From a virus: a stretch of 64,000 nt of DNA. The position numbers and the translations under genes are program-made. The notes beneath the pieces were generated by a model. That model did not search any database, was not told where the DNA came from, and saw only the letters and a list, made by a program, of their open reading frames with translations. The stretch spans positions 34,489 to 98,488 of IMG/VR virus record IMGVR_UViG_3300042988_001700. The stretch is one strand, 5' to 3'. Numbering within the stretch: position 1 is the stretch's first letter; every line of letters begins with the position of its first letter. Below are positions 2,722 through 60,700 of the stretch, one piece after another.

Positions 2722-3457
2722 TTGATATTCCCTTCTTTATTCTTTCGATGCAATCTGCTTTATCTATGGCACCCCAAAGCCTCATACCTTCCATAGCTGC
2801 ATCGTAATTGCTTTCGGAATACGTTTCCTTTAGGTTTGCGTCATCCGTTACTGAGTCGCAGCCAAGCAAGTGCTTTATCTTAACCTCCGGAACGAACACT
2901 ATTCCATTTTCCAGCGATAGGCCAAGATCCTTGGTATACATATCAAGTCCACGATGGTTCAATGTTCTTGGATAAACATATCCAATAGCATCGACGAACT
3001 TCCATGACCAAATCTCTGCGCCCGGGTGCTGCCATGTGTACCAATCATCGTTCAACATATCGTCACCGCAACACCATCCCCAACCGTTCGACACTTCCAT
3101 GTATCTTTTAATGAGTATTGAATCCCAATTCTGGGTAAGATACAAATGATCGTCGCAGATTATTTGATAGTACGGGATCTCTCTATACATGGAGAACACC
3201 ACATGGTTCACGACTTCTCGTAAGCATCGATGGCGACCGATAACATAATTCAATTCGAATCCGAATCTTTCCTTATGTCCCGCGATCAACTTTTTATAGT
3301 TGTCTATCTGCGGATCGTCGTTGTGGAGATACACAAATATCTGTGTTTTGTCATCCGCCCTCTTCACATAGAACGTTTCAAGCATATCGAAGAGCATTTC
3401 TGGCCGCCGGAACGATGAACAGATCGACAAAAGTCTGGTATTGTACTTGTCTATCAT
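2699..3457 (-). CDS. glycosyltransferase, GT-A fold
   Basis: SSFRRPEML, HNDDPQ, IICDDH...WD, D-x-Y and IKHL motifs. Confidence 0.65.
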   Translation of the reverse strand: MIDKYNTRLLSICSSFRRPEMLFDMLETFYVKRADDKTQIFVYLHNDDPQIDNYKKLIAGHKERFGFELNYVIGRHRCLREVVNHVVFSMYREIPYYQIICDDHLYLTQNWDSILIKRYMEVSNGWGWCCGDDMLNDDWYTWQHPGAEIWSWKFVDAIGYVYPRTLNHRGLDMYTKDLGLSLENGIVFVPEVKIKHLLGCDSVTDDANLKETYSESNYDAAMEGMRLWGAIDKADCIERIKKGISSEARLPL

Positions 3458-3458
3458 A

Positions 3459-4547
3459 TTAAATAAAATTCAAATTTATAGGTTTATTCAGGTAGTCATA
3501 ACAGAACTTATTGGTCGAATCCAACCGGCAGGACCCGCGACACTGCTTGTGGACATCGAAATTGTCTCGCATCTTGGATATCACATCCCAATAGTGCTGG
3601 CTCTCGAATATTGTCTTCAATGAACTCTCATGCACATTCCCGAACTTGTAATCTTTGAACTCGGGCTTATCTCCGAACATGAATCCGCACGGATACCAAT
3701 CGCCATTACCGCTAATTTCAGAGATAAATGGAACACTCTTGCATCCGGTGTACGGGCGAACGCCTTTCTGGTGCATTATATTCCACTTGACTATGACATC
3801 TGTCTTATTTGTTGATAGGCGCTCACACATCATTAGTGCCTGCTGCGTTTCCGGGGAATCATATTCCTTTAAGTCGAAATTTCCGATTCCTGATTCATCG
3901 TCCGGGATAGAACACTGCTTGATAACGAAGTAATCAACGCCAAGGCCAACTGCTAATCTCGACTCCAGTACCATTTCTTCTCGCATTGTGGTTGGAACGA
4001 ATACCGACTGCATGCCAATCTCGCAATCGTATTCATATTTCATCTTGACGCGAACGATCCTCTTGATATTCTCAACTACCTTGTCAAAATAGTCTCTCCC
4101 GTGAACCTCATTGTATCCCTCCCTTGTCCCGGCGCTGATACAGAAGCGCATCCACTTGCACGAAGAAAGAATTTTGTGACACTTTTCCTCGTCGTTTATC
4201 AAAAATCCGTTTGTCGATATCGCCATATCAAGCCCGATGTTCTTGGCAAGGTCAAGAGCGTCATACAAATACGGATTGCAAGTCGGCTCCCCGTCACCAA
4301 TAAAAGCTATCGACTTTACCCCGATGTCCTTTGCATCCCATATTGTTTGAAGCAGCGGCTCTTTTTCAATGAATACCTTTTGAACATCTTGATATTTGCC
4401 ATAGCAGAAAACACATGCCACATTACAGAATTTAGCAATTCCCATATCAATGTGTATAGGCGCAACTCTCCTGCCCTTGTCAAAATGTTCAATAACTCGG
4501 TCCATGTGCCATAGCAGTTTAGTAGAATCGTGCATTCTCTTGTCCAT
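3459..4547 (-). CDS. radical SAM protein with SPASM/twitch domain
   Basis: CNVACVFC (CxxxCxxC), GDGEPT, STNG, C-terminal GDWYPC...GNV...CxxxC. Confidence 0.92.
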   Translation of the reverse strand: MDKRMHDSTKLLWHMDRVIEHFDKGRRVAPIHIDMGIAKFCNVACVFCYGKYQDVQKVFIEKEPLLQTIWDAKDIGVKSIAFIGDGEPTCNPYLYDALDLAKNIGLDMAISTNGFLINDEEKCHKILSSCKWMRFCISAGTREGYNEVHGRDYFDKVVENIKRIVRVKMKYEYDCEIGMQSVFVPTTMREEMVLESRLAVGLGVDYFVIKQCSIPDDESGIGNFDLKEYDSPETQQALMMCERLSTNKTDVIVKWNIMHQKGVRPYTGCKSVPFISEISGNGDWYPCGFMFGDKPEFKDYKFGNVHESSLKTIFESQHYWDVISKMRDNFDVHKQCRGSCRLDSTNKFCYDYLNKPINLNFI

Positions 4548-34266: not shown

Positions 34267-34772
34267 TTTTTACCAACTTTCCTTTTGGTTGATTTTTTTG
34301 GTGGAAGAGATGTCATTTTGTTTTTTAACTGTCGTTTTTTATGAAATTCGTATTTTAAAGCATCGGAAATTCTTCTGGCATTGTCTTTTGAAATACTGTA
34401 TGCTATCATCCCAGAATCAATATCCCTCAGAGAATCTTCCTTTCTCTTTTCTTCTAACCGAATTCGCTCGATTATGAGTCCCTTTAAAAGAACAAGGTAA
34501 TTAATTTCGTCGCCGAACTTCTCGTCAAGCATAGCCATTGTGGGCAATATTCCGTTATCGATATCATCAATGATATCTTCGACGGAAACGCAATGCTTCT
34601 CCTTCATTCCGGCGAGTGCTCTTTCTGGAGAAATATTCCTGCGGCGGCCAGCAACTTTGAAATTGTGAAACCTTTCGCCATTGCGAACATATTCTCCAGT
34701 TTTCTTTTGTAGAGACGACTTCATCTTTTCGATGCAATCATCAACAATTAAATTAAAGTCTTCATTGTTCAA
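34263..34772 (-). CDS. hypothetical phage protein (possible nucleotide-modification-associated family)
   Basis: KTGEY...FHNF...DEINYLVLL. Confidence 0.5.
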   Translation of the reverse strand: MNNEDFNLIVDDCIEKMKSSLQKKTGEYVRNGERFHNFKVAGRRRNISPERALAGMKEKHCVSVEDIIDDIDNGILPTMAMLDEKFGDEINYLVLLKGLIIERIRLEEKRKEDSLRDIDSGMIAYSISKDNARRISDALKYEFHKKRQLKNKMTSLPPKKSTKRKVGKK

Positions 34773-37522
34773 ACAGAAACCTCCTTTAAAATACTTACGT
34801 TTAAAATTTCAGGGCATTGCCTGCGATATTTCTTGCAAATAACAAATCCAAGGGCAGCCTGCTTAGCCGTCAAACTAACTTTATCGGCCAATTCATGGCC
34901 TATAAAAACATCGACTTTGCTGAAACCCATTCCATTACGAATGTTTGCATGGTCGAAGTCAAAACCTTTTAACTTTAACAAGCAACCATGAATAATACCA
35001 ATGTCATTCTCGTCAATCTTTTTCGATATTTCTTCTATCTGGTCCCTCCGAACTCTTTTTGTGGCCGGAACACTGCTATCATCTTTCGGGTTCGACATAC
35101 TATCAACAACGTCGAAATCATGTTGATTTATGTCTGCAATAACATCATCGACACATTTTCCACCACCATCCAAAGCAGCACTTATAATATTCAACTTATC
35201 GACAACCGTTGTTGCAAGCTTCTGGTCCAGCGACCCATCCAAAGCTATGTAATAGACATTCGTGCTGTTACCGGTTGCCCCTATTCGGTTGCACCGAGCC
35301 TCAACCTGGCTCATATTGGCCGGAACCCAATCAAATTCGACGATAGCAACGTTAGAAGCTGCGGTTAGTGTTATTCCAACCCCGGCAGCGGTAATTGATC
35401 CTACGAAGACTCTGACCGACTTGTCGCGCTGGAAAGCGTCAACCGAAGCCTGTTTCTCTTCAATGTTATTCTTTCCCGTCAAAACAACTGGATTGTATTC
35501 AGACAACCCAGACATCAGCCCATCTATAACGTCATGGTGCCAAGCGAAAACAGCTATTTTATCAACACCAGAATCAAGCATATCTGAAATCGACTCTACA
35601 GCATAAGGAATTTTAAGCACAGCCGTATCATGACGCACCTTCGCCATAGAAGTAAAGGCGATCCTGTTTCCCTCTTTTAAATTGTCTATCGCCTTTAAAT
35701 ACTCTTCCTCTCCCTCAGATTTTGCCATTTCAGCAAGAACCTGCAACCTCTCAACACTCTCAATAGATTTTTTCTCTATTTCTTTTTCAATTTCTATCTG
35801 CTTTCGACACCCATCGGCAGGAATAACCATGATCGTTCGCCTAATTAAAGGAAGATCCTTCAAAACGTCGCACTTAAGCCTTCTTACCATACACGAAGAT
35901 CTAAGCTCCATCTGAAGCCTGTCAAGATTGCTGGCACCTTTAACTTCCCACCCGTACCTTGTTTGTTTTCCCTCGCAAAAGGTTTCCACGTATGAAACCC
36001 AATTCGGAAACGCTTTTGGCGCTATTCCGTGAACTAATGGCCATAACTCAATAGGGCGATTTGGTATAGGCGTACCGGTCAATGCAACTATGAATTTAGC
36101 GCCAATTGGTGGAACATAATCTTTATGTCCTTTTTTTTGTCTACCCCAAACAGAATATCCGCGTTGAGATTTTTTAGACTTTACCATTTGGCATTCATCA
36201 ATTATAAGAGAGTCTAATTCTCCAATAGCATCAATGCTTTCTCTCCAAGCATTAAGTATATTGTAATTAATTATTATCCACTTAAAATCATCAGAAAGGA
36301 TATTATTATGAACAAAGTTTGCATTTCTGAATCTCTCGCGAAGAACATATCTCAGGACATACAGATCGGAAAGACTACACTTAGAAAGGCTGGAGATAGC
36401 ATTGGAATCCATCACTCCACCCTTAAAAATCATCTTTGCAAGCTCAACCTTCCATGGCAACCACCCGCTATCATCGTCAAAAACGGATTTTCCTTTTGGA
36501 GATCGAGAGTAGATATTCCCACCATCATTGCATCCGTCGAAAGAATCAAGCAAGGGGAGTCCTACACAACCGTTTGCGCCTCTATTGGAATACATATTTG
36601 TGAACTCAGAAGACTTAGTAAGAGGCTTGGAATTTGTGTTAACAAGCAGCGGCCCGATAGCCCGTTTACTGTCCCCCAAAGACCCATCGACCTCTCCTAT
36701 CTTGCGGGAATCATCGACGGAGAAGGATGTGTTAGTCCTCCCAGAAAAAGTCATACAACATGGTCTATTTGTGTTTATAACACCTATAAGCCCGTTATTG
36801 ATTGGTGTTGCTCTTTCGGAGGGTTCTCCTACGAAAGGAAACCCCGTGGCTTCGGAAATCTGACTCAATATGGATGGCATATTAATAGGAAAACCGATGT
36901 TATCGCATGCCTCTCCGCCATTACTCCTTATATGAAAATCAAGAGATTTAAGGCAATTCAAGCCCTCTCTTTCCTCCTTGATAAGCCCATTAGTTTTATT
37001 GAGATTAACTATCCTCCCGCGTGATACATCCCATTTTGAAATTTCTCTTGTCCAATTTACACGCAAACTGGCAGGGCACACAACAAGAACTTTTTTGAAA
37101 GAATCAATTGCGTTTATAACTCCAATAGCCTGAATAGTTTTGCCTAAACCTATTTAGCCCATCTCGTCGCCGAACAAAACGCCGGAACAAGATGGAATTA
37201 GCCCTCCTTTCGAGTAAATGTTTACAGCATAATTTATTCCAGCCACTTGATACGGAAGATACGACAAACCTTCAGGGCATGGAATTTTAGCGCTCGACTC
37301 TGACGCCATAGAATCTTCAATTGCCTTCTTTTTATCAGCTATTATTTTGTTAATAGCTCCAGTAGCCTTTTCGTCAGCGCTTCCCATTAATTTTACTGCC
37401 ACATTAACATTGTCGGTCCACCACTTTATAATGGGGTCAAAATTCATTCCGGCAGCTTTTGGAATGTTTCTGGATTCGTATCCACCACACCACACAAAAA
37501 TATTATTTGAATAAGTCAACAT
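34769..37522 (-). CDS. SNF2/SF2 helicase, interrupted by a 9-nt stop insertion (~37151-37159) and an antisense HEG (~36302-36988)
   Basis: LPYQ...DEMG*IGLGKT, VVCPASL, DECQ, LTGTP, RRLK, GVGITL, QVEARCNRIG all in one frame. Confidence 0.85.
36308..37024 (+). mobile_element. single-motif LAGLIDADG homing endonuclease with N-terminal HTH-like region, antisense inside the helicase
   Basis: DLSYLAGIIDGEGCV...ICVYNT...WHI...LSAITPYMKIK; AAAGGA RBS. Confidence 0.85.
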
Positions 37523-37561
37523 GGTCTAAATATAACTAATTGGGGTTATCGTGTCAATACC

Positions 37562-45763: not shown

Positions 45764-48700
45764 TTAATTATTCCTCCCCTTGTATGTTAAATTGTACCAT
45801 GCGTTTGCTCTTCCGAGCTGTCTTAACTCGCGCGGAGCCAGGGAAGCTATAAAGTGGTTCCTGTATTTGTCCGGCAACGCGGCTAAAGGATCTGCGTTTC
45901 GAATGCTTGTGCTTATGCCATCTATCGTACCTCCTGCTTTAAGGTATTCTTTAAGCCAACGTATAGCTGACTTCTGGTCTTTATACACTATCGATTTCTT
46001 ATAATAATATAGTGCATTCGCCTTGTTTGTTGGGTCATTTTGATTGACTTCATACTTGTTGTCGTCAAGGAATTTATAAACCTTTGATTTTATCTCCTGA
46101 TAAGCCGCTTCGCCGGGATCTGTGATATAAACAACGGCAGTCGGAATACTGTTGATAAAACCCTTGCTTGGTTTTCCGGCAAGATACCTATACGGGATAT
46201 CCATAGCCATCGTTCTCGCAACATTCTCCCATGGATCTCGTATCGGGGAAGGATTAAAAACATTCGGGTAAAAAGATTTCTTTGTCAATAACTCAACGGG
46301 AGACTTGATCATTGGCGTCAAAGATGTCCCGATTCTCTGGAATGGGGCAACCGCCGCCTCTTTGATCATATCAGAAAACTTCTTGGAGCCGCTTGCAAGG
46401 TCCGAAACGTCATAGGGCAGGTCTTCTAAGCCTATCCACGAAAGCGCGTCAGAAAGCGCCCCTTGGAATCTTAAGGAGGCAATTGTCCCATCGCTTCTTC
46501 GTGACGTCAAATTTCCGTTCGCCAGCTCTTCGATATTCGGCAATAACAAGTGCGCTTGCCGTCTCCGCTGCATAAGCTCTTCTTTTTCGTCATCCGGGAA
46601 TAATTGATTCCAAAGCATGACCGCTGCATACAGAGCGCCAGCTTTAACCATAAGCATTGCCGAAGAGAATGCGGCGTTCTTCCCAAGAATTGCTGCGCTC
46701 GTAAGACCAAGTTTCGCGGTCCTGGCTGCACGGGTTTTTGAATCACGGTCCCCTTCGTGCGGAGCGTTTTGCATTAGGCGATAGTATCTTGGTGCGTTTA
46801 TTTCAAGCCAGCTATAAAACGGAATTAGGTACCTTCTAAGCCACTGGCCGCCTTTCGATATGTTGCCGTAGTCTCCAATAAGCTCACGCGCCAGCTTTGC
46901 CGCCTTGTCATCTTGGTCTGTGATTTTTTCTATCGCCAGCCTGTTGGATGCGCCGAACGTAGTATCGGGATACTTCTTGAGATGATCGACAAAAAATCTA
47001 TAAGCAGCAAGCCTCAAAATATTTTCTCTCCATTGAGTGAAATTCTTGGTTGTCTGCCAATATCTTTCGATCATACCGACTTTTTCTCCCGAGAGAATCT
47101 TAAGGAACATGTCTTTGTTCAAATCAGTTATCTCGCTAACCGAAAGCCCGGAACTTATTACGCCTTTTTTGATAAGTTTCAACATTTCTTCTGTCGGTGC
47201 TTTCCCCTTAAGATTGTAACCCCAAAGGTCTTTTGCTGCTTTTTGAGCATAGGCCATTATTTTTGGGTCATAAGCCATAGCGATATCCAAATCCCCAGAC
47301 ATATTATTGATATTGTACTTAATAACACTCGGAGGATTGAGAAGTCTCCAAATTTTCCAAGAATTTTGGATTTTTTGAAGTGCTTTCGCTATAAAATTGT
47401 CAATCGGGAAATCAACAACCTTGTCAAGCGTAGCTGCAAGTTCTGACGGCAATGCCCACGATTGGCGTTTTCTCAGGGCAAGCAATGTCTGAAGATCCTG
47501 TTCCTCTACAACCTGGCTCCCATTTTGATCTATTTGAGAAGCAATTTTGTCAGGAATAGTTGTCGCTTCGTACATTCCAAACCCTCTCTTTGGCTGCCAT
47601 TCGACATATCCTTCAGGTAAAATGTCCTGCCATTTCTTAAATTGTGCGCCGGTGGTAGATTTAATCAACTCTTTTCTTTGGCTAATTGCCTTGAATATCA
47701 TTCCGGCGTACTGTGAACCATCAAGCCCCTTGTCCATTAAATAAGAAAGAAATTCCCACCAATCCTCGTCAGATCCGGCAGTGGAATCGACATCCATTTC
47801 AACGCCACTTTTTTTAGAGAAGTATCCGCTTGACAACTTCTCTATAATCAAACTGTATTCTGGTGCATCTATTTCATCCTTTGATGCCATTTTTTCAAGC
47901 TGACTAACAGCAATGGCAATACTTTTTCGATACGGCATAAATGGATCGAACATGTCGTAGTCGGGCGATTTTTCGTCTATTCCGGCTGCCTTTGCCAATC
48001 TCTTCTTTGTAAGTTCATTATTCATTTCAGTAGCATCTTGCTTCAGTTGGCCAGATATATCTGCCACCATTTTCATCTTTTTGAGAGAATCTGCCGCTTC
48101 GAGCAATGCTATTCCTTGGGCAACAACCTCAAATTCAGATTCGGTATATTTCGTGTTGTACGGCTTATCGTATCCAACGCGACCGTTCTGCCAACCTTTT
48201 CTTTTGGTCCTGAAGTCAGAAGAAGTGGTTCCAGTTGTAAGATATTCCTTTGTTTCCATAGCTTCAATAACTTGGTGGTGGAAATATCTATCATCCTTTA
48301 ATACGTCTTCATGCAAGAATTTCTCTCTAACTAAAGATTCCCTCAAGTCCCTCATAAATCGATTTCTTAAATCAAGAGCATTAGAAATATCCGGATTAAG
48401 AGCAGCAAGCCGCATAGCCTCTTTATTATCAGCCTTGACATCGTCAATGCTTTGGTATCCAAACGGAAGCTTCTTTGGTGTTCCGTCAGGAAATGTATAT
48501 AATCCGGATTCGATGTCTTTCAGAAGATCGGGTAGTATTATGTTTCTTTCGAAAACAATCTGCTTTTTAGGACCCATCCCGGCGATAATGCCTTTTACCA
48601 CATTGTATGCACTCGCCTTTGAGAATTCTGGAACAGACTCAAAGTGCCTTAAAATATCTATCTCTCGCGCAAAAACAACCGGGTCAAGAAGAGGATAGTG

Positions 48701-51700
48701 GCGTGTCATATCGTTTTTGGCAGTCGTAATAGCCGCCATTGTTTTAGCGTAAATGGTATTCAGGTTCTTTTGGAGACCACGGGATTCATTCATTATTTTG
48801 TCAACGTTTTCGTCAACCGACTTGAACCCGCCACCTTTGATATTATATTTGGCTCTCGGTTCCCACAATTGAGGGGTATTTTTAATGTTTTTAATTGACT
48901 CACCATTATTAGTGCTCGATCCACGCGCATCTCCAAAACCCAAAACACCAATTTTTCGAGCGCTATCATAAGATCCGTCTTTATAAACATAAACAATGTC
49001 ATGTGTTATATCATATTCCGGTTCAGAAGACGACCGAGTGCTTTTAATTATTCTCGAACCAGTCATAAAAATTTTTCTATCATCGGTTGCAATAACTGCC
49101 CAAGTCCCACCAGATTCTCTTACTCTCTGATAGACTCTGCTTGGAGCTAATTGCTCTATTCCTTTTATTGGATACCAAGCTACAACCATATTTTGATTGT
49201 CTAAAACAAGAAGACTTGTATGGTTTTCTCCCTGAAAAGTATCGCGTGTTAAGTTGGCAACGTCGATAGCCTGTCTTATTTGTGGTCGATTTCTTGTCGC
49301 TTCGTTAAAGTCTTCTTTTGGTATATCAAAACTTATTGTTTGAGCAGTAGGTAATCCTCTGTGATCAATTTCTTCACCAATAAACAAGAATCTGTCATGA
49401 TCAAGAACAACATGCCCAGAAAAACCGGGAATATTATTTATAAAATATTTTGTTATAAACTTGTCGGGATCGCTTGCTTCCATTCTACCTGACGGGTGAT
49501 TATGAACAATGAAATACTTTGTTGCTCCAAGTCTTTCCATTCTATTTTTTATAATGTAATTATTTGCAGAAAGACCAGTTCTGGTTCCTACTACAGAACT
49601 ATTTGTCAAACCAGAAGACATTGCGTTATGCGCAAGAATTTTACCGTTATCATCAGTATAAATAATGTGGAAATGCTCAATTCTTGGATGGCGGAACACA
49701 GAAAACATATTGGCAAGTTCGGTCGCATTATTTATTACCCTGCCGCGAAAATCGATTCTTCTATGTTTCTTCCAATCCCCGCGAACAGTTGTTGCGCCAG
49801 CCTTACCGAGAACAGGAGAAATAGGCGATTTAGAAAATTGGTTTTCTATTTCAGTATTTGCTTTTTCAACTTCCTCTTTCGACCCAAACACTATTTCAGT
49901 ATCATTTTTCGACATCGGGGTTCCAAAATCCAACTCTGTTTGCACACCCCAATCTTTCAAGAACTCCCTTTGTTCGAACAGCGATTGCCCATTATAAACA
50001 ACGTCATTTTTAACGGCGTCATTAATGGCTATCGATTGCTGCGAAACGCCAGTGCCGATATTGATATTCTCAACCTTCAAACCCCACGGCTTTCCGTACT
50101 TTTCGTAAAACTGAGAAATCTTTTTATCATAAAGATTATAAGCCCAATCTCCACCGACACTAAGGCTTTCGCCGTCCAGCCTTGTCCAATCCCTGTATGC
50201 TTTATCTTTTACTTTTGTGCCTTCCGAATTAAATATTCTTTTTGAGATATCTTTTCCAAGAAGACGAGACACCTCTTCAATGCTTAAATCCTCTTTATAA
50301 ATGCCGTCGTTTTCGTCTATGTGTGGTGCATCGATATTATAGGTTTCATCGTCGTTCTTTTCCCAATCGATATATTTTACCTGCTTTTGCAAGTCATATC
50401 TATCTGCTGTCTGCCTTCCAGTTATCCACGAAACTTTGTCGTATCCATTTTCGGATGCGTAACGCAATGCAAATTTGAGAACAACGTCCATCCAGTTATT
50501 TGCGAATGGCATAGGAAGAACACCTGGGCCATAAGACTTTTTGAATTTTTCAATAGCCTCTTCTCGCGTATCTCCAGTTACAAAATCAATACCAGATATA
50601 CCGGCTCTCCACTTATCTCCAGACTGAAACACCCTATCGGGAACTCTATTTGTTGCTGCCACATTCCCTTCGCGCAATTCTTGGGACCATTTTGACTGTA
50701 TTTCCTCAAGGAAGAGAACTTTGTTTCCTTCGCTATCGGTTCTATCGTCCATGCGAATGTGGGCATAAACGTTTTTTCCGAGACCATGTGGTTCATCGTA
50801 TTCAGCAAACATTCCAAATGTGTCTTCTGGCAACGAAAGAGTAACTTCTTTATAATTTTGATATCCCGGCAATGTTAGATCGTCGTATTTGTTGGGGCCA
50901 TATTTCGTTTTTCTTGGTTCATATTTATCGTACCATTCTTGTGCAAATTTTTTTGCAGCATTAACATCAGATTCATTCTGTATAAATTCTTTATTATAAT
51001 AAATAGCAAAAGAATCTTCCAATTGCCCAATCTTTCTGATTTTTATACTCAAATTTGTGTTCGAGTAAATAATAGGGCCACTAAGTTTATTTGGTTCTTC
51101 CCATTCTATTTTTGGTATATCATAATCATTAACGGCTATTTTAGAATCAATCATGTTTCCGCTGATGAATTTAATTATTTCGTCTTTTGTGACCGATTCT
51201 TTTCCTGAAAACTCTTGAGACAATCCAATCCAATCAACCTCCGCTTTTTTTACTCCGGGCTGATTGAGAATCATAGCGACAAGCTGACTTCCAGTTCCCT
51301 TTTCCTGTTTTAAGTCTTGTGCTGCACGGAGTAGGGGAGAATAAAAATAAGGAACGGCAGACCGATACTCTTCGACCGAAGCGTATTTTTTAATCTTTTC
51401 AGGATATTTTGCGGGAAGCTTTTCGCGCATTTTGTTTAGTCTATCACCAACGTCACGCGGATCTCGCGTATAGAACGTTCCAGTCGTAACTGGATCGGAA
51501 AAAGACAAAGCAACAACCCGGTCAGCTATTCCAAGCTGGGGGCCATCAAAATGTATTCCGTATTTGTCGGCTGCTTGCTTTGCCTGTTCAATAAGACCCT
51601 TGTCAAGCTCGCTAAACTTTCCTTCTTCTGAAGCCATCTTTTCTGCGCGGTCTTCTTCGTAATCAACAATATCGCCATAAGGACTTCCCGGCTCGAACAT

Positions 51701-54700
51701 AACACCATTTTGATTCAAGAATCCTTTAATATCCTCTTTCGATACGGTCTCGTCGCCTTTGCTGGAAAGATAATCTGAAAGTCCAGTGAATTTCATTTCA
51801 TCCATTTTTGTTCCGCGACCGCTTGAAGGATCGAGCATCTTGAGCCACTGGCTTGCGGGAGCCTTTGGCATATCGATAGAATTGACTGCTTGCATAGCAT
51901 TGCTATACAATGATTCTCTTGCGCCATAAGAAGCGCCAGGTTCTCTGAACATGTTGGCGGTATCGGTTGAATATTCGCCACTATTATTTGTAGCCGACTT
52001 TATTTGTTTTGGATTAAAAGCAATATAGACATCTGACAACGGGGCACGCTTGGTATCTGTGTAAGTGTCTTTTGTGTTTCTGATTATTATTCCGTCATAA
52101 CCATTTTCTTTTGCAAATTCAATCTGTTCTCTTTGAGCCTTCGGACCCCCGCGCTTTCCCCACTCAACGCCGCCAGCGTCAATAACCATTGGGTTCTTAA
52201 GCGAAAGATATACTCCAAATACACTTGGCTCTGCGTTTTGATAATCAAAAGCCATTTTGTCATTAGCGTATGTTCTGGCAGTATTGTTGTGGTTTGTAAA
52301 AAAATACGCTCTTTCTTTTAATGTATTAGTCTGTCCTTCGGGAGAAAGAGTGTCAAAATATTGTTCTTTAGCGGTTTTAAACACCCCGTTTTGTTTTACG
52401 TCTCTTGCGTCAGGAGTTCCGTGATAAACAACCAGCGGCATGCCTAAATCATCAACGACTTTACTTGCTGTTTCCGAATTTGATTCCCAATCGCCAAACC
52501 ATTTTTTAAACTCTGTTGATTGAATATCTCCGCCATAAGAAGCGCCAGGCTCAAACAGGCTCAACTGTTCTGTTCCGCCAACTATTCCGGCACCACCTTC
52601 GAACATAGGAAGGCCAGTAACGTCTGGCGATCCACCGATACGCTTTTCGTTTTTCTTTCGAATCTCAGCGGCAATAGCTTTTTGAACAGGGGTTCGCTTA
52701 TCCTCAAAACCAGTTCCAGAGAATAAGTCACCGGTTTCGTACTTTGATTTTGGCTCCTCCGTAATTAGATCGTCGTTGACTAACCCTTGATACGGGCTAA
52801 TCATTTTTATCGTTGCGCCAATTTGAGGAAGGCTATCGTCAATGAACTTGTTGACATTGTCCTTTGCCTTATTTGATGATGACGACGGCGCGTCGGTAGC
52901 AGTAAGGTCCTTGACTGCCTTATGGACAAGAATCATTTCTTTGATAGAATTAATTCCAGCTTCGTCTTCGAATGGAATAAACCATTTTTTATTCCAGCTA
53001 CTAATGTATTCGCTAAACGCCCCGTATCTTTTGAGTTCGTCAAGATTAGGAGACCATAAATTTCTAAGCTCAATACGCGGCTGGTTGTGAACGTTAACCG
53101 GCGCTATTTGCCATCCGTTATCAAGCTCAACTATTCCATGGTCGTACTTCACAAGATTAAACAGCTCTACTGCCGACAATTGCGAGAAAGAATTCCCAAT
53201 ACCAAGCCTTAACTTTATACCGGCAATTTGTTTCTGTTTAAGGCTTATGCCAAGATATGTTTCGTTATCTCCAGTTGTTGCCTGAACAACGGTCTGTTTT
53301 TCGTGAGAAGCAAAAGCAGAATCGTTGTCAATTTTTTTAGGATAAATCTTATCGTAAATTGGATAAATAATCCCGGTAAGAATAGTATGCTTTTCCGTTG
53401 TGTATTCAGGAATTTCACTTAGTTCCTTTTCCCAAAGAACCTCCGCGTCTCCGCGATTAACTTCCATGAGACCATGATTAAACTCTTCGTTATCCAGACT
53501 ATGTCTTATTCCCTTTGGATTCGTTAGCTGATATACTTCTTTCTCTATTCCATTTGTAGTAATTTTTACCGTAATAACAGAGTATATTCTTTTGCTTTTA
53601 ACGTTCTGATAATATCCAACCCAATAATCAGTGAAGTCTTGAATATGAGAAACCTCGAACGACAATTTATTGCTTGGAACCTCACCGGCCAAGTATACCA
53701 AGTGCGTTTTTGCCTTCGAAATTGGATCTACATAAATCAATTCGGCAGGCTTGTCTATTCTAAGGTTCTTTGCACGTATCTTTTGAACACCAGAATCGAA
53801 ATTTCCCTTTGCTTTAGCGTTTGCAATATTCTCTTGGTATTTTTCATAAAACTTTTCAAACACTTCATTTTGGCGGCCAATTGGAAGAACGAGTATTCTA
53901 TTAAGAAATTTATCTACAGTTACGTCTTCTTTCGCCTCTCCCTTTTTGTTTAACAAACCCATTTCGGCAAGCGATTTTCTTGAAAGTCCAGTAATGACGC
54001 TTTGTAATGCGTTTTCTCCGTATTCGTCGGTAAGATCCTCTATTGAGAACATTCCACCACCAAGAGACTCTCTGTTCCCGCTGGTCATAGCGCCAAGGCT
54101 GGCAAGCCTACGAGACACTGCATTAACAAGTCTTTCTTGTCCCTTGATATCTGTTTTAACCAGCTTAATAATCGGCGGGACTTCTTGGTTTGATCTATGA
54201 ACCCTACCAAAAACCTGCATCTGAGTGTCTGCCGACCATGATAATTGCATTGCGTAAAATACGCGCTGCTGCTTATTTTCTGCCTTTTTATCGGAATGAA
54301 GCGATATCCCGGTGGATGCCGCTGCCGATATGATTGCTACACGCTTCTTTCCGCTCTGAAACTGCTTAGTTTCGTACTCGTTGACATCCTTCGACGTTCC
54401 ATTCTCGTTTATTCTTCTGACATATTTTTGGTTTTTACCAACACCTTCAAGCCTCATTTTCCTTCCGGATATTTCAGCAATATTATCGGCACCAAAAGCA
54501 TTGACAATCCTATCAAAAGGATTCGGAGGAAGGTTCAAGTTTGAAATAATCTCAAGAAGTCTTTGCTGTTCCTGAAAGTTTTCTCTGTTTATTACCGGTT
54601 CCCCTTGCGCGTCAAGCTCCATAACTGTTTCGTCTTTGCCGGTAACAATGTTCTTTTGTGTTACATATTGATATATCGGAAAACTTGTTTTTACCATGCT

Positions 54701-57700
54701 GGCAATCATGTCTTTTGAACTAAAATCCATGTCGTCAATATCTTCAATTCCACTTGCCTTTGCTGCGGCAACGCTTTTCTTGGTCAGTCCCTCGTTCGTG
54801 CTAAACATGCTGATAACAACTGAGCGCCCTGCCGCAAGCTGTTTTTTTGCGTCATTAACAACCTCGTCATACTGAAGAGAAGTCATTAACTGCAAAAAGA
54901 ATCTCTGTTGAGTAGAATAGAACGCCGTATAATGTCCAGATCCTTTTTTCTTTTTCTCACCCGAATTTTCGGCAGCATTCTCAAACGCAACCAATAACTT
55001 CGACCACAAATCCGCTGCATCATTATATACGTTTCGCTCTCCCTCGGTAACGTTGTGCTGTATTGTCTCAAATTTTACCCCGGCATAGCTAATTGATCTG
55101 CTTATATAAGATCCTATAGCCTTAAGGTCTCTTGTAAGCGCCTCCATTGCGCCAAGCCCACCGCGCGTCATAGCTGTCAGGAAATCCATGAAATCAGTAA
55201 ATGGAGCACCGGCACCCCACATTCCAAGTCTACTTAAATAAGCCATGTTTCGCGCAACCGTAGCAGACGTAGCCGACATATTGAATATGCGTGCGTTCTT
55301 ATACGCTTTTTTAAGCATAAGACCGACATTCCCGCGCTCTGAACCTGCCTTTGAACTTGCCTCTCCGCCGATACCAGCACCAACGGCGTTTTTCATAAAA
55401 TGAGATTCGTCGAAGACAATAACGCCGTCGAAGTCGTCTCCAAGCCAATCTTGTATTTGCTTCAATCTCGCCTGAGTAGAAATTCCATTTTTATCTTTTT
55501 CGCTTCCCGACATAAGTCCGTATGACGTGAAAAGTATTCCGTCTTTATCTGGTAGCTTATCCCATGTTTTTGTATCGGCCTGAGAAATTACTTCCATTGG
55601 AACGCCTACGTCTGAAACGTCTCGTTCTGCCGAAGGCTTTAAATCAAAATTAACACTAATCCAAACTGCACGTTTTCTTCCGTGCATGAAATTATCATAA
55701 ATAACACCTACAGCGGTCCTACCTTTGCCGACCCCTGTAGAATCGCCTAATAAGTACTCCGCGCGTTCGCCACTTAATAATCTTTGGTTGTGTCTTTGCC
55801 CTGCATATACGATAGCCTCCATCTGAACATCAGAAAGCCTTCCCTCTTCGATAACTTCCTTTGGGATCTTTGGGGTATAAACGACATCGGGAGCCTCTGT
55901 CGCGGCAAGCGCCGTAGATTGAACGATGTTTCCCGGGTGTTTTATTGTTCCTTCAATTGTGGCTTTTTTGACAACGTAAGGAGAGTATTGCGAATCTTCC
56001 TCTTGCTCTACGTCCTTTACTCCGCCACTTCCTGGAACGCCGCTCGTTCCGTTGCCTGGCCCCACTGGACTAAGCCCATCGCTAACTGCATCGCCCATGC
56101 GCGCATCGATGATTGGTCTGTCAGTTGATTCAGGACTTCCGCTTTCGCTTGTTCCGGAAATTGCTCCGTTAGGATCTCCAATACCGCCCCGTGTATTCTT
56201 GGATCTTCCACTACCAGATCCCACTCGTCCTGTATCTCCAGAAAGTCCGGTTGTGTCTCGTTCTCCAAGAGAAGATCCATCAGGGGGATTAACGACGTTG
56301 TCTGATTGGCTGCGAAGTTTCTTTTTGTTAGATCGAACATTGCCGCCAGCTTTTCCTTTGCTACTTGATCCAGCTTTTCCGCCAATGCGTTCATTTATGT
56401 CCTCCTCTGCGATATCTTTTAACAGGTCTATAGTTCCTTCAGGCGTTAGTCCTTCAGATCGAACAACATTCGCCATTCTTTCATTTCTATTCATTCCGGG
56501 AGTCGGACCCGTTTTATCGATAATCAATATTTGATTGTCGAATCCGGTCCCGTATTTTGCGTAAGCCTTTCCGTCTATACCGATATTCGCCCGAACGTCG
56601 TTTTTCTGCTCCATCTTATCCCACCACGCACTAAACGATGGTCTTTCATGTGCCATTCCGCGACCAACGATGGCAACTAACCTACCACCATCCCTTACCC
56701 TGAGAAGGGCGTGCGTTACATGGCTTGCGCCAACTTCGGTATTATGGGAAGCTGTTCTTCCTCCGGTAGCAGAGAATGGAGGATTCATTATAACGACATC
56801 GGCCATTATTGTCTGAGGAAGATTGTTGTTCAGCTTTTCGGCGTCAACGCTATACGTTTCGAACCCCTGCATATTCAACAATCCAAGTCTTCTTGGAGAT
56901 ATCTCATTCGCTACAACCTTCGCACCGGCAATGTGCGCCATTGTCGCAATATTCCCTGTCCCGGCGCTTGGTTCTATAACGGTCATGCCTTTTGATACCC
57001 CGGATGCCCAAACAGCTATAAACGCCTCCGCTGGTGGCGTGGAGAACTGTTGGAACTCAATCTGTTCTTCAGTACGGTCAACTTGCCTCGGGATTATATC
57101 ATTAAGATCGTTAAGTCTCTTTACCGTATCTTCTGGGTTGCTGAAATCGACGATTCCAGATTCGAGTATGTATTCATTGATAGCGACTTCAAGAGCGTCA
57201 TACATGTCCCTTGGATCGTATGCGCCATCTCCCCGGGTTCCGCCAAATGAGCTGTCTGCCATTTTTGTCAACTGAGGATTCCCAAATTTTACACCGGTAC
57301 GAAGTTGCTGCTTAATAGTCTCGATCAAAGCACCGGTTCCGGGAACAACGTTTTTATCGTCTACCCGCGAAATAGGAACGTTAATAGGAGGTTGATTTTC
57401 TTTTTTGTCTCCACCTACTTTTGCGTATGTTGGAACGAAATTTTCGTAATCGTAGAATAATGTGCTTCCTTTAAATTTTAATTTCGCCGATCTTCCCGAT
57501 CCTATAACTTCTTCAACCTCTAATACATCAAGTTTGAAAAGAGTAATAGGAATTCCAACGTTCTCTCTTGCTTTCGCCAAGTCTCCAACTTTTGGCGTCC
57601 ACTCTTTAAGCATCGCCTGTGTTCTTGCGATATCTTCTTGAACCAAATCTGGATTTATTTCAACATCGTATGTCTTTTGGAAATCAGCAATACTGACATT

Positions 57701-60700
57701 CCAGTCTTGAATAAACCAATTGTTACCAACTTTATTTTTAACAAAAACCTTTTCGCCGATTACATCTATTCCGGTTAGAATGTATTTGTTCCCGTTAGAA
57801 CGAATAAATTCATCTCCAAATCCAATAGTTTTCTTTTCTTCTTCTTTAGGAACTTCGATTATTTTGTCAACATTTATAGCATGCTCGTTATCAACGGAAT
57901 AATCGTCAATCAATCTGTCTTTTGCCATTTTGGAAAGAACCTTTTCAACATCAGGTTCATCCTTTACGTCAAAGTCCCAAGTTGAACTAACTGAATTCCA
58001 CCTTCTCGGAATACCGTATTTTAAAAGGCCGCTCTTCAACGCTTCAGTAACTTGTTTTCCGGGATATTTCCCAAAAGTTATTCCTCTTAAGTCCAACACA
58101 TTCATGTGTGGATGAATAGTTGCAGATACTCCAACCTTCTTAACTTCTGGTTTTTCTACCTTCTTCTCTTGTTTTGCGACGAAATTTGACAGCAAAACGC
58201 CATTGCGCGGATCTATTCCACCATTAACCTTGTAGTAGGCGTCGTAAGACATCTCGACAACTTTTTGAAAACTTGCTTTAGCGGCTGATTCCGGAATCAT
58301 TTCAGCTATCATTTTTGCGATAGAATCAAAATTTGTCATTCCGCCTTCGATCATATCTGCAACGGCATCGAACGCAAGGTCTTCGTCTTCCTGGGAAGCC
58401 TTTTCGTATGAAGCACCTGGCTCTTTTAATGAATATTCAGCCGGTTCCTCCTGCATCCTATCACCAAGTTTTTTGAATTTCTCCATTGCACGCTTAATAG
58501 ATTCGTTCTGTTCGGGAGAAGCCTCTTTTTCAGTTTTACCATGAGAGGGTTTGGCTACTATTATGTGTTTATCAATGAAATCTTTTTGTGATTCCTTTTC
58601 TGTTTCTTTGCTAAACGGCTTTCTGAGAGTTATCTTTCCTTCCAGAATACCATGTCGTACCCTATCTGATATGTCCTGTTTTAAAAGCCAAGAAGACATT
58701 TCTGGCCAATCTTTTCCAAGATCATCCTTGAGGCGATCAATGTCAATCGGCCTAAGCGTTTCGGGAGAATCGGCCACTAACTGAAGGCGCGACAAATAAT
58801 TCATCTTTGGAAGCGGAAGAAGCGCATCTCTGCTTTTCGTAAGATTGCTTTTGTCTTTTGACGACTGAGCTTCCTCTTCCTGCATTCTCTTTAATTCCGC
58901 ACGAGCTTTTTCTCTTGGGGTAAGTTCTTTTTTGGCTGGTTCTGGTATCTTTGTCAACGATTCGTCTAATTTTGTATTTGTTGACTTTTCAAATTCACCA
59001 ACACTTTTTGCCATGAAAACCCTTGAGACAACCATACCTTTAAGAGATAGGTCAATTGCGTTTATGTTAACAGATCCGTCTTCGCTTACAGAAACGCTCT
59101 CCAGCCTATATTGTCGTCCATTAAAATCAAATTTAGATCCTATAGATATCTCTTGTGGCTTTCTTAAGCTTTCCTCTTGGCTTTTTGTTAGTTTTTTGAG
59201 CTGTTCCGGCCTTACGGTTACGAATGGATCTTTAATGTCGTCGTGAAATTTTACATTTATTACATCGTCTTCGGTTTCATCAGTTGAACGCATAAAGCCA
59301 TAAACAGTTCCAAGTCTCCCCAAATATTGAACCTTGTCTCCTATCGAATACTCTCCAAGAGTAAATTTTTTTACGTCTGGTGCCTTTTTGGTAAAAACTT
59401 TCGACAGGGAATCTTCTTGTTTTTGCTGTTCGGCAGTCGGTTTGTTTTCTGCGGCTTTGTCTTCTTTTTTATTTGAATAAGTTTGTTCTAAATCAAGGTT
59501 TGTTAGTCTGGAAAATTTCTTTTTTGCCCAATCAATCAACTCGACATCCGTAGGATTGTGGGCATCGGTCCAAACCTTTAACATTGTTCTATACGCTGTT
59601 GCGTGTGATCTGTCGTATTCTTTCCCAATTGCATCCGTAATCAACAAATGAACTTCTAGTGAGTGTTGTTGTTTTTTTGCTGATTCTGGGATTTTAGTTA
59701 AAGATTCATCTGTTTTTTTCTTTTCAAACGGTTTGCCGGTAAACAGCGCCTTTGTTCCCTTTAGCGTTCCCGGCAATTTTACACCGGTAATCTCAGTAAA
59801 CAATTTCCTACTATTCTTGTTAGTCAGATGAAGAATATCGCCATACTCGCCAAGAGCAATAGCTTTAAGAACCTTTTTTGCTGCAATCTTTGAAGGCTTT
59901 TCGCGGATTTCTCCACCTGTTTTATCGACAAGCCATTGCGCCCACTTATCAATCTCTGCCTGGTCGGGAACATATTCTTGCTTTGCAACTTCTTCCCCCT
60001 GGGCAATACCCTCTTCTATAGCCTTTTTAGCATTATGAGAGGCATTCTTGTACATCTCTGCTATTTCGTCACGATTTGTAACAGCATCGATAACTAACTG
60101 TCTGAAAGAATCGTAATCCCCGGGAATGAGTTCTTCCGACATTCTGTTTTCTTCTGTCCAGACGCGCTTTCCTTCGTCGGTGGAAAAGTATTCGGTAAGT
60201 CCTTTGAAGTATTTCCTTTGCTCCGGAGACATTCTGCTTTCGCCAAGGTCTTTTATGGCTTGCTGATATTTCTTTCCGGTAACGTCGCCAAGATTAAAAG
60301 CGTCTCTGAACGCAAGATTTAGATCGTACTTATATGCCTCAAAGTTAAGATCGCTTAACTCTTCATCATTAAGATTGTCCGTCTTAAAAGCGGATCTTCC
60401 GGAAGACCGTATTGGTCTATTCCCGGTCGATTTAACGATGGCGGCATCGTCTGTTTTTGCTTCTTTTTGGATTTCTGGCGCAACAGTCGCTTCGCCTTCA
60501 CTTGGGAGGCGTACTCCGGCGTCACCGGCTCCGGTTCGCTGTAATTCATTTTGTACTGTTTCTGTTCCATTCCTTTTTCCTCCTGACCATGTTTGTGAAC
60601 GGCCACTTTCCTTTGCCTTATATAATTGTTCGTCTGCATTAGAAATTCCAATTCCGTGACCAGCCGAAAATGTTACTCCCGTAAGCTTCCCGTCAGCAAA

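Follow-up and report, generated by a model that had tools for sequence, protein, structure and literature searches.

How can a homing endonuclease gene persist inside the gene of a motor protein when no intron or intein surrounds it? To our knowledge, homing endonuclease genes have been thought to survive in essential genes only inside self-splicing introns or inteins. The question was raised by a 64,000-nt stretch of viral DNA, referred to here as the window (positions 34,489 to 98,488 of IMG/VR record IMGVR_UViG_3300042988_001700). The window belongs to a complete virus record of 98,488 bp that has direct terminal repeats and was assembled from a freshwater metagenome. In the window, a plus-strand LAGLIDADG endonuclease gene lies backwards inside a minus-strand SNF2 helicase gene, and the helicase frame runs through it without a stop. 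A homologous insert at the same site was found in a distant helicase, P0125. The best reading of the locus is probably a splice-free insert, in which the helicase is read straight through the endonuclease gene as a disordered loop.

An I-CreI-type gene inside the helicase gene

According to the listing of open reading frames (ORFs), the minus strand carries nearly all genes of the window, and a plus-strand ORF at 36308..37024 (238 codons plus TGA) is nested in a minus-strand ORF at 34769..37081. The first-pass annotation, which was made from the letters of the window, had described a plus-strand LAGLIDADG gene codon-registered with a minus-strand helicase, and this arrangement was confirmed. 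The product of the plus-strand gene matched phrog_5046 (E 2e-15), and tblastn matched it to phage LAGLIDADG genes. The profile of its family, built from 31 homologs, matched I-MsoI (7e-23), I-CvuI (9e-12) and I-CreI (1e-10) in the PDB. The Pfam family LAGLIDADG_3 by itself was below threshold (E 0.07). The architecture consisted of two three-helix modules resembling a helix-turn-helix (HTH; aa 8-45 and 70-106) and one LAGLIDADG core (aa 126-234). The LAGLIDADG motif was YLAGIIDGEG at aa 131-140, in which D137, G138, E139 and G140 were invariant in the 31 homologs. The AlphaFold2 (AF2) model, with a mean predicted local distance difference test (pLDDT) score of 90, contained the two three-helix modules and an alpha-beta LAGLIDADG core, and Foldseek matched this model to I-CreI (probability 1.0). 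A full-length homolog with the same ends and 54% identity, P0001, is encoded on a 1,242-nt Logan contig. A search with the endonuclease alignment against metagenome contigs and viral contigs found nothing useful. The plus-strand ORF is a real, single-motif I-CreI-type LAGLIDADG endonuclease gene, and the 238-aa product may be an active enzyme.

In the helicase frame, the insert comprised 229 codons (36302..36988, minus strand). The frame scan found it free of stops, no family matched it, and AF2 predicted it to be disordered. Its boundaries were set by blastn and not by MAFFT, since the MAFFT alignment across the insert misplaced the right flank. The insertion was checked by alignment to uninterrupted homologs, as the first-pass annotation had proposed. 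The relatives L002, L083 and L084, whose identity to the window was 93% in the C-terminal 1.4 kb and 84% in the N-terminal part, had 141 nt where the window had 840 nt. An insert of about 687 nt (229 codons) with TAAT at both junctions had been claimed. The insert itself was real against L002 and L083, but the finer claim did not hold fully. After removal of the 229 codons, the loop of the window was still 2 residues longer than in the relatives, so the exact junction was ambiguous by a few codons. The ATTA/TAAT at both junctions (36302-36305, 36989-36992) was merely a 4-nt repeat in AT-rich DNA.

On either side of the insert, about 75 nt formed a diverged patch of helicase coding sequence. 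The upstream patch (36989..37064, minus strand) is a candidate co-conversion tract, and blastn identity to L002 stopped at 37065. The downstream patch occupied 36225..36301 (minus strand), and identity to L002 restarted at 36224. Identity between the window and L083 was 7/17 in the upstream patch and 11/25 in the other, compared with 94% in the core; the patches were as distant from L083 as from family members of 45% identity. With P0005 as the outgroup, 16 of the 26 residue changes specific to the window lay in the diverged patch downstream of the insert. Outside the patch there was no excess, with 5 changes in the window and 6 in its relative. The clustered changes and the divergence of the flanks thus suggest that the invasion was fairly recent. 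The insert-free form was also present in a contig from a sediment run, the source sample held only the insert-bearing contig, and GenBank phages yielded no blastn match to the locus. Taken from the alignments, the patches and the presence or absence of the insert match what is left when an element homes from a distant donor allele and its flanks are co-converted. The patched flanks and the presence or absence of the insert among 93%-identical relatives also lend indirect support to site-specific cleavage of the insert-free allele.

The patches also carry the signals of the endonuclease gene. On the plus strand, the downstream patch held its AAGGA ribosome-binding site and a promoter-like TTGTAA-16-TAAAAT at 36261-36288. 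The upstream patch, read in antisense, formed the last 11 codons and the stop. The first-pass annotation had likewise derived the ribosome-binding site and stop of the endonuclease gene from helicase antisense sequence.

Shared codons, stop avoidance and a second copy

The codons of the endonuclease and the helicase shared triplets, with the low coordinate of both at 2 mod 3. Therefore, a stop in the helicase frame would need TTA, CTA or TCA in the endonuclease gene. None of these codons occurred, as the first-pass annotation had stated. The 16 Leu codons were CTT (8), CTC (7) and CTG (1), and the 21 Ser codons were TCT (7), TCC (7), AGT (4), AGC (2) and TCG (1). Over 36302-36988, the helicase frame had 0 stops, and the remaining two minus frames had 12 and 25. 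TTA, CTA and TCA together made up 3.45% of the codons of the genome. The stop-avoidance probability, which had been proposed as a check, was 9.4e-5 when calculated from the Leu/Ser content of the gene and the codon usage of the genome, and other estimates reached about 1e-3. A value of about 7e-4 was obtained when the 21% frequency of third-position A was applied to the 31 CTN/TCN codons of the gene, and 13 of 14,392 sliding 238-codon windows elsewhere in the genome were stop-free. A general avoidance of A-ending codons was considered and rejected, given the 21% third-position A and the common GGA, AGA and AAA codons of the endonuclease gene. Reassignment of a stop codon was also rejected, with TAA being the commonest stop (53 of 90 ORFs) and the sole tRNA being for Thr. 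The earlier caveat that other antisense ORFs of about 200 codons exist was justified, as antisense ORFs of 200-250 codons were present in the window. Elsewhere in the window, a single minus-strand ORF of 5,858 codons (45764-63340) contained a 250-codon stretch without antisense stops.

A search for a similar antisense in-frame insert elsewhere had been suggested, and one was found. The 229-aa helicase-frame insert was compared by phmmer with 1.84 billion representative proteins, and the single match was P0125 (E 1.8e-10). This SNF2 helicase has 945 aa, belongs to the same family and is 33% identical overall to the helicase of the window, with motif I intact and all motifs kept; in the core region the two were only about 39% identical. 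It is known as a protein only and is encoded on a 21,952-nt ENA contig. Its insert of about 230 aa was homologous to that of the window, occupied the same site and was open in the helicase frame as one ORF. Both inserts were in frame at both junctions. The P0125 insert region had no match except itself in a set of 5.8 billion proteins, and searches with P0125 in viral and genome contigs found insert-free helicases only.

With the frames in codon register, each residue of P0125 narrows the choice of codons on the opposite strand. A degenerate antisense reading of the P0125 insert was aligned with the independent endonuclease proteins P0001 and P0002, and the scores exceeded shuffled controls by z values of 33 and 25, respectively. 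In this reading, 128 of 204 aligned codons were compatible with identity to the endonuclease of the window (null 35 +/- 5). Moreover, compatibility was found at 53 of 62 invariant endonuclease columns, including DLSYIAG..DGEG. Evidently, then, one and the same endonuclease gene lies backwards at a common site in P0125 and in the helicase of the window.

The wider family was surveyed in 80 viral loci with homologs of the endonuclease, grouped at 90% identity into 60 clusters. Counts of stops in the host frame had a bimodal distribution across this census. Zero stops were found in 7 of 10 clusters lying antisense to the neighbouring genes, compared with 2 of 50 others (Fisher 1e-5), and the DNA of both stop-free clusters among the 50 was at least 64% G+C. 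In the seven stop-free antisense lineages, the expected chance of zero stops was 1e-4 to 4e-2 each, and the remaining two antisense frames held 6-21 stops. Substitutions were concentrated at third codon positions of the endonuclease, so the endonuclease frame is the conserved protein. The host gene was a major head protein gene (phrog_1357) in all seven lineages, and the endonuclease gene sat within an apparent group I intron, which opens with an in-frame stop following GCU. The census supports stop avoidance as real and points to selection that keeps the host strand translatable even where read-through into the host protein is not the purpose. Stops in homologous insertions had been named as evidence that would refute the idea of a translated insert. 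The outcome was divided: the frame was stop-free in 7 of 10 antisense clusters and open in P0125, but the seven were in introns and often out of frame. The stop-free copies in introns mean that an open frame alone does not prove read-through of the helicase. For this reason, the argument for read-through rests on the junctions being in frame, on the absence of a ribozyme core and on P0125.

The capsid-gene introns were also noted in their own right. The apparent introns (L009 2856-3460, L013 784-1354, L019, L051, L053, L069 2745-3489 and L077) lay at two sites and contained antisense I-CreI-type genes, with sub-threshold Intron_gpI matches. The antisense translation of the endonuclease gene in L009 (2878-3453, minus strand) gave a weak match (E 0.007) to PHROG 29973, annotated as "unknown function". 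Some database families may derive from such antisense ORFs.

The host helicase and the competing explanations

The SNF2 helicase frame ran from motif I (GLGKT) to its stop at 34769..37153 (minus strand), open across the insert, and matched SNF2-rel_dom and Helicase_C in Pfam and phrog_62 (E 1.6e-66). It was preceded by an N-terminal helicase ORF of 122 aa (37154..37522, minus strand), identified from the ORF listing and relatives, which ended in DEMG and an in-frame TAA (37154-37156) within motif I. Further upstream, a promoter-like TTGACA-17-TATATT (37529..37557, minus strand) matched the consensus at 11 of 12 positions, this match being its only support. No second SNF2 gene was found in the genome. 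The insertion point lay between motif Ia and motif II. When motifs I-VI were tested for lying in one frame, the Pfam domains matched, but the TAA interrupted motif I, and motifs II and VI deviated in the clade. All invariant columns of 47 helicase homologs were kept in the window. The ratio of nonsynonymous to synonymous substitution rates (dN/dS) between the window and L083 was 0.19 in the N-terminal ORF, 0.05 in the 30 codons after the TAA and 0.13 in the C part. The structure prediction proposed by the first-pass annotation gave a helicase core that was confident on both flanks of the insert (pLDDT 85-97) and an insert with pLDDT 22-45 over helicase residues 203-355. The insert emerged between strands 170-173 and 413-419 and consisted of coil and helix. 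A folded domain on the helicase strand was rejected as a candidate, with no family match and a pLDDT of about 25 compared with 90 in the endonuclease frame. The helicase may have kept its function.

Other features of the helicase family were observed at motif I. At 37139-37170, the window read DEMG-TAA-IG-LGKT, with codons GGC TAA ATA GGT, and the same 90-nt context was present in the insert-free L002 (2352-2441) and L083 (451-540). The sequence on both sides of the TAA was coding and under purifying selection, no suppressor tRNA was encoded, and TAA was the main stop. In distant homologs, DEMGLGKT was uninterrupted, and L096 (about 2984-3820) carried an HNH intein at exactly the same point (DEMG/C...HN/CGKT, the slash marking the junction). 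The 9-nt insert at motif I may be a recoding site, by a Gly-to-Gly hop or by read-through, and may also spoil the homing site of the intein. The same SNF2 helicase family hosted ordinary sense-strand inteins at motif I (L096 2984-3820, L125 2699-3652) and further ones near residue 465 of P0013 (L132 1543-2058, L134 4223-4723, L138, L140; proteins P0093, P0101 and P0106). These elements included an HNH intein and in-frame inserts of mini-intein size. The SNF2 helicase gene is a hot spot for mobile elements.

In the proposed mechanism, an I-CreI-type endonuclease gene with two extra HTH-like modules would have homed into the phage's sole SNF2 helicase gene, where it lies backwards and codon-registered at a point between motif Ia and motif II. 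The helicase message would be translated through the insert, without removal of an intron or intein. About 230 structureless residues would then loop out from the surface of ATPase lobe 1, between two of its beta strands, and the core would still fold. Avoidance of TTA, CTA and TCA in the endonuclease gene would make both strands readable. The endonuclease would be made from its own plus-strand signals, and it would cut insert-free alleles and copy itself and about 75 nt of flank into them. Translation of the helicase through the insert is the step that we infer from the sequence features described above. The first-pass annotation had allowed the endonuclease to persist as neither intron nor intein in two ways, either as a translated antisense loop or through removal or bypass at the RNA level. 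The absence of a group I core and of an intein signature, together with the second open helicase, favours the translated loop.

An unrecognised intron or ribosomal bypass that yields an insert-less helicase is quite improbable. Related endonuclease genes do lie antisense in group I introns of capsid genes, and the same helicase gene has a candidate short ribosomal hop at motif I. However, the Rfam scan detected no Intron_gpI core in 2.3 kb at E ≤ 1 or in 1 kb at E ≤ 10, and the same scan was positive in the related capsid loci L009, L069 and L013 (23-27 bits, E 6e-4 to 4e-3). The insert (about 690 nt) is shorter than the endonuclease ORF (717 nt), which leaves no non-coding space for an intron core. 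No in-frame stop followed the U of a 5' splice site at either junction of the window, unlike the capsid loci, which have GCU followed by UAA or UAG. Furthermore, an open frame in two diverged copies would be needless if the insert were removed. Protein splicing by a cryptic intein with an antisense LAGLIDADG gene is still less plausible, even though such an architecture has been published (bioRxiv 10.1101/2025.01.02.630785), the helicase family hosts ordinary inteins at motif I and elsewhere, and the helicase-frame insert ends in VHN. The junctions read KTN/GLIKEE and FVHN/NILS in the window and GAT/GLGTKE and FTH/DWRW in P0125. There was no Cys, Ser or Ala at the start and no His-Asn followed by Cys, Ser or Thr at the C-terminal junction of the window; the residue after VHN was Asn, P0125 had THD there, and the terminal His was merely the antisense of the endonuclease ATG. 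No Hint or intein family of Pfam or NCBIfam matched the insert with its flanks at E ≤ 10. The insert in the helicase frame had no match in Pfam, PHROGs or NCBIfam, and tblastn of this frame against phages also gave none. The insert of about 230 aa was wholly covered by the endonuclease ORF, leaving no room for a splicing domain of about 130 aa, and the modelled coil and helix (pLDDT about 25) did not resemble the beta-rich Hint fold. The insert of the window bears neither an intron nor an intein signature, in line with the first-pass annotation, which had seen no room for an intron core and no valid intein motif.

A recent knockout was also weighed, in which a dispensable or crippled helicase was invaded, the open frame is an inherited trait of the family, and the read-through protein is useless or not made. 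This explanation is unlikely, though several observations agree with it and weigh against a translated loop. Read-through is unneeded in the seven stop-free antisense relatives, which occupy apparent group I introns and whose open frame is frequently out of phase with one or both exons, so the open frame may be a family trait with another cause. The TAA in motif I requires recoding. Of 186 conserved columns, 21-23 deviate in the helicase clade, some of them in motifs II and VI, and the near-invariant Trp before motif II (Trp436, in the patch) is replaced by Leu in the window and by Phe in P0125. With an invasion that looks recent, the intact appearance of the helicase is no proof that it tolerates the insert. 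In addition, P0125 is known solely as a protein, and an open antisense frame is cheaper to keep in a GC-richer genome. Against the knockout, the insert of the window and that of P0125 are joined in frame at both ends (about 1/9 each by chance), P0125 is a full-length helicase with all motifs, and the TAA and the odd residues are shared by insert-free relatives under dN/dS of 0.13-0.19 in what is the sole SNF2 gene. An ordinary long antisense ORF that arose by chance is highly improbable. Other antisense ORFs of 200-250 codons occur in the window, but the probability was 1e-4 to 1e-3 for this gene alone, before the in-frame junctions, P0125 and the link to orientation in the family are counted.

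Relation to known systems and meaning

The idea of a splice-free insert was only partly new. The finding is preceded by the ShiLan domain and by antisense LAGLIDADG inteins, and the splice-free antisense LAGLIDADG form is what the window adds. The ShiLan domain of actinophage DNA methylases is a stop-free, non-splicing insert that hides an HNH endonuclease (Arsenault, Gosselin, Gogarten 2025, PMC11855218). Its endonuclease is on the same strand and out of frame, its distribution is patchy, and its evidence is computational only (PMC11855218). The window shares with it an open host frame, the absence of an intron or intein, a hidden endonuclease in another frame, patchy or disjunct presence and a predicted protruding loop. 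The ShiLan endonuclease is of the HNH type on the same strand, whereas that of the window is a LAGLIDADG endonuclease on the opposite strand, codon-registered, and its host is the SNF2 helicase gene of a freshwater phage that is uncultured.

Antisense LAGLIDADG genes were described within inteins of Synechocystis dnaX, a Chloroflexus SpoVR-like gene and an actinophage minor capsid gene (bioRxiv 10.1101/2025.01.02.630785). Where that preprint treats antisense LAGLIDADG inteins, it cites Gorbalenya 1998 and Gogarten 2002. These elements resemble the insert in having an I-CreI-like gene with extra terminal domains, in antisense orientation, and an open host ORF. They differ in having Hint domains and protein splicing, whereas the window lacks intein ends, a Hint match and the room for one. 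Antisense endonuclease genes are also found in nuclear rDNA L2066 group I introns (PMC9548176). Such introns, including the capsid loci L009, L013 and L069, share with the window the endonuclease family, the antisense orientation and co-conversion of the flanks. The window has no detectable ribozyme core and no stop after a 5' splice site, and its host frame is continuous at both junctions. Free-standing endonuclease genes can split phage genes, as mobE does in nrdA of Aeromonas phage Aeh1. In that case, too, an endonuclease gene lies inside an essential-type phage gene without splicing, but it is co-oriented and the host gene is cut into two translated pieces, whereas the window keeps one continuous frame. 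The literature search found no description of an antisense, splice-free LAGLIDADG insert or of an orientation rule.

It is tentatively suggested that I-CreI-type endonuclease genes of phages may generally be selected to code antisense, in codon register and with stop avoidance, which would keep the host strand translatable, and the window and P0125 would be its first LAGLIDADG examples. About 690 nt could then be under selection for coding on both strands. A gene caller will list the enlarged helicase as "hypothetical" or else the endonuclease, but not the two together, and orientation-dependent stop avoidance would be a simple genomic test for further elements of this kind. The helicases of the window and L083 offer a ready-made natural pair for asking how much junk peptide a motor protein tolerates. 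A splice-free insert with an open opposite strand would be a cheaper route into coding DNA. If this interpretation is true, the same element could live in introns, in inteins or without splicing, and the last of these would add a fourth lifestyle to the intron-borne, intein-borne and free-standing ones of homing endonucleases.

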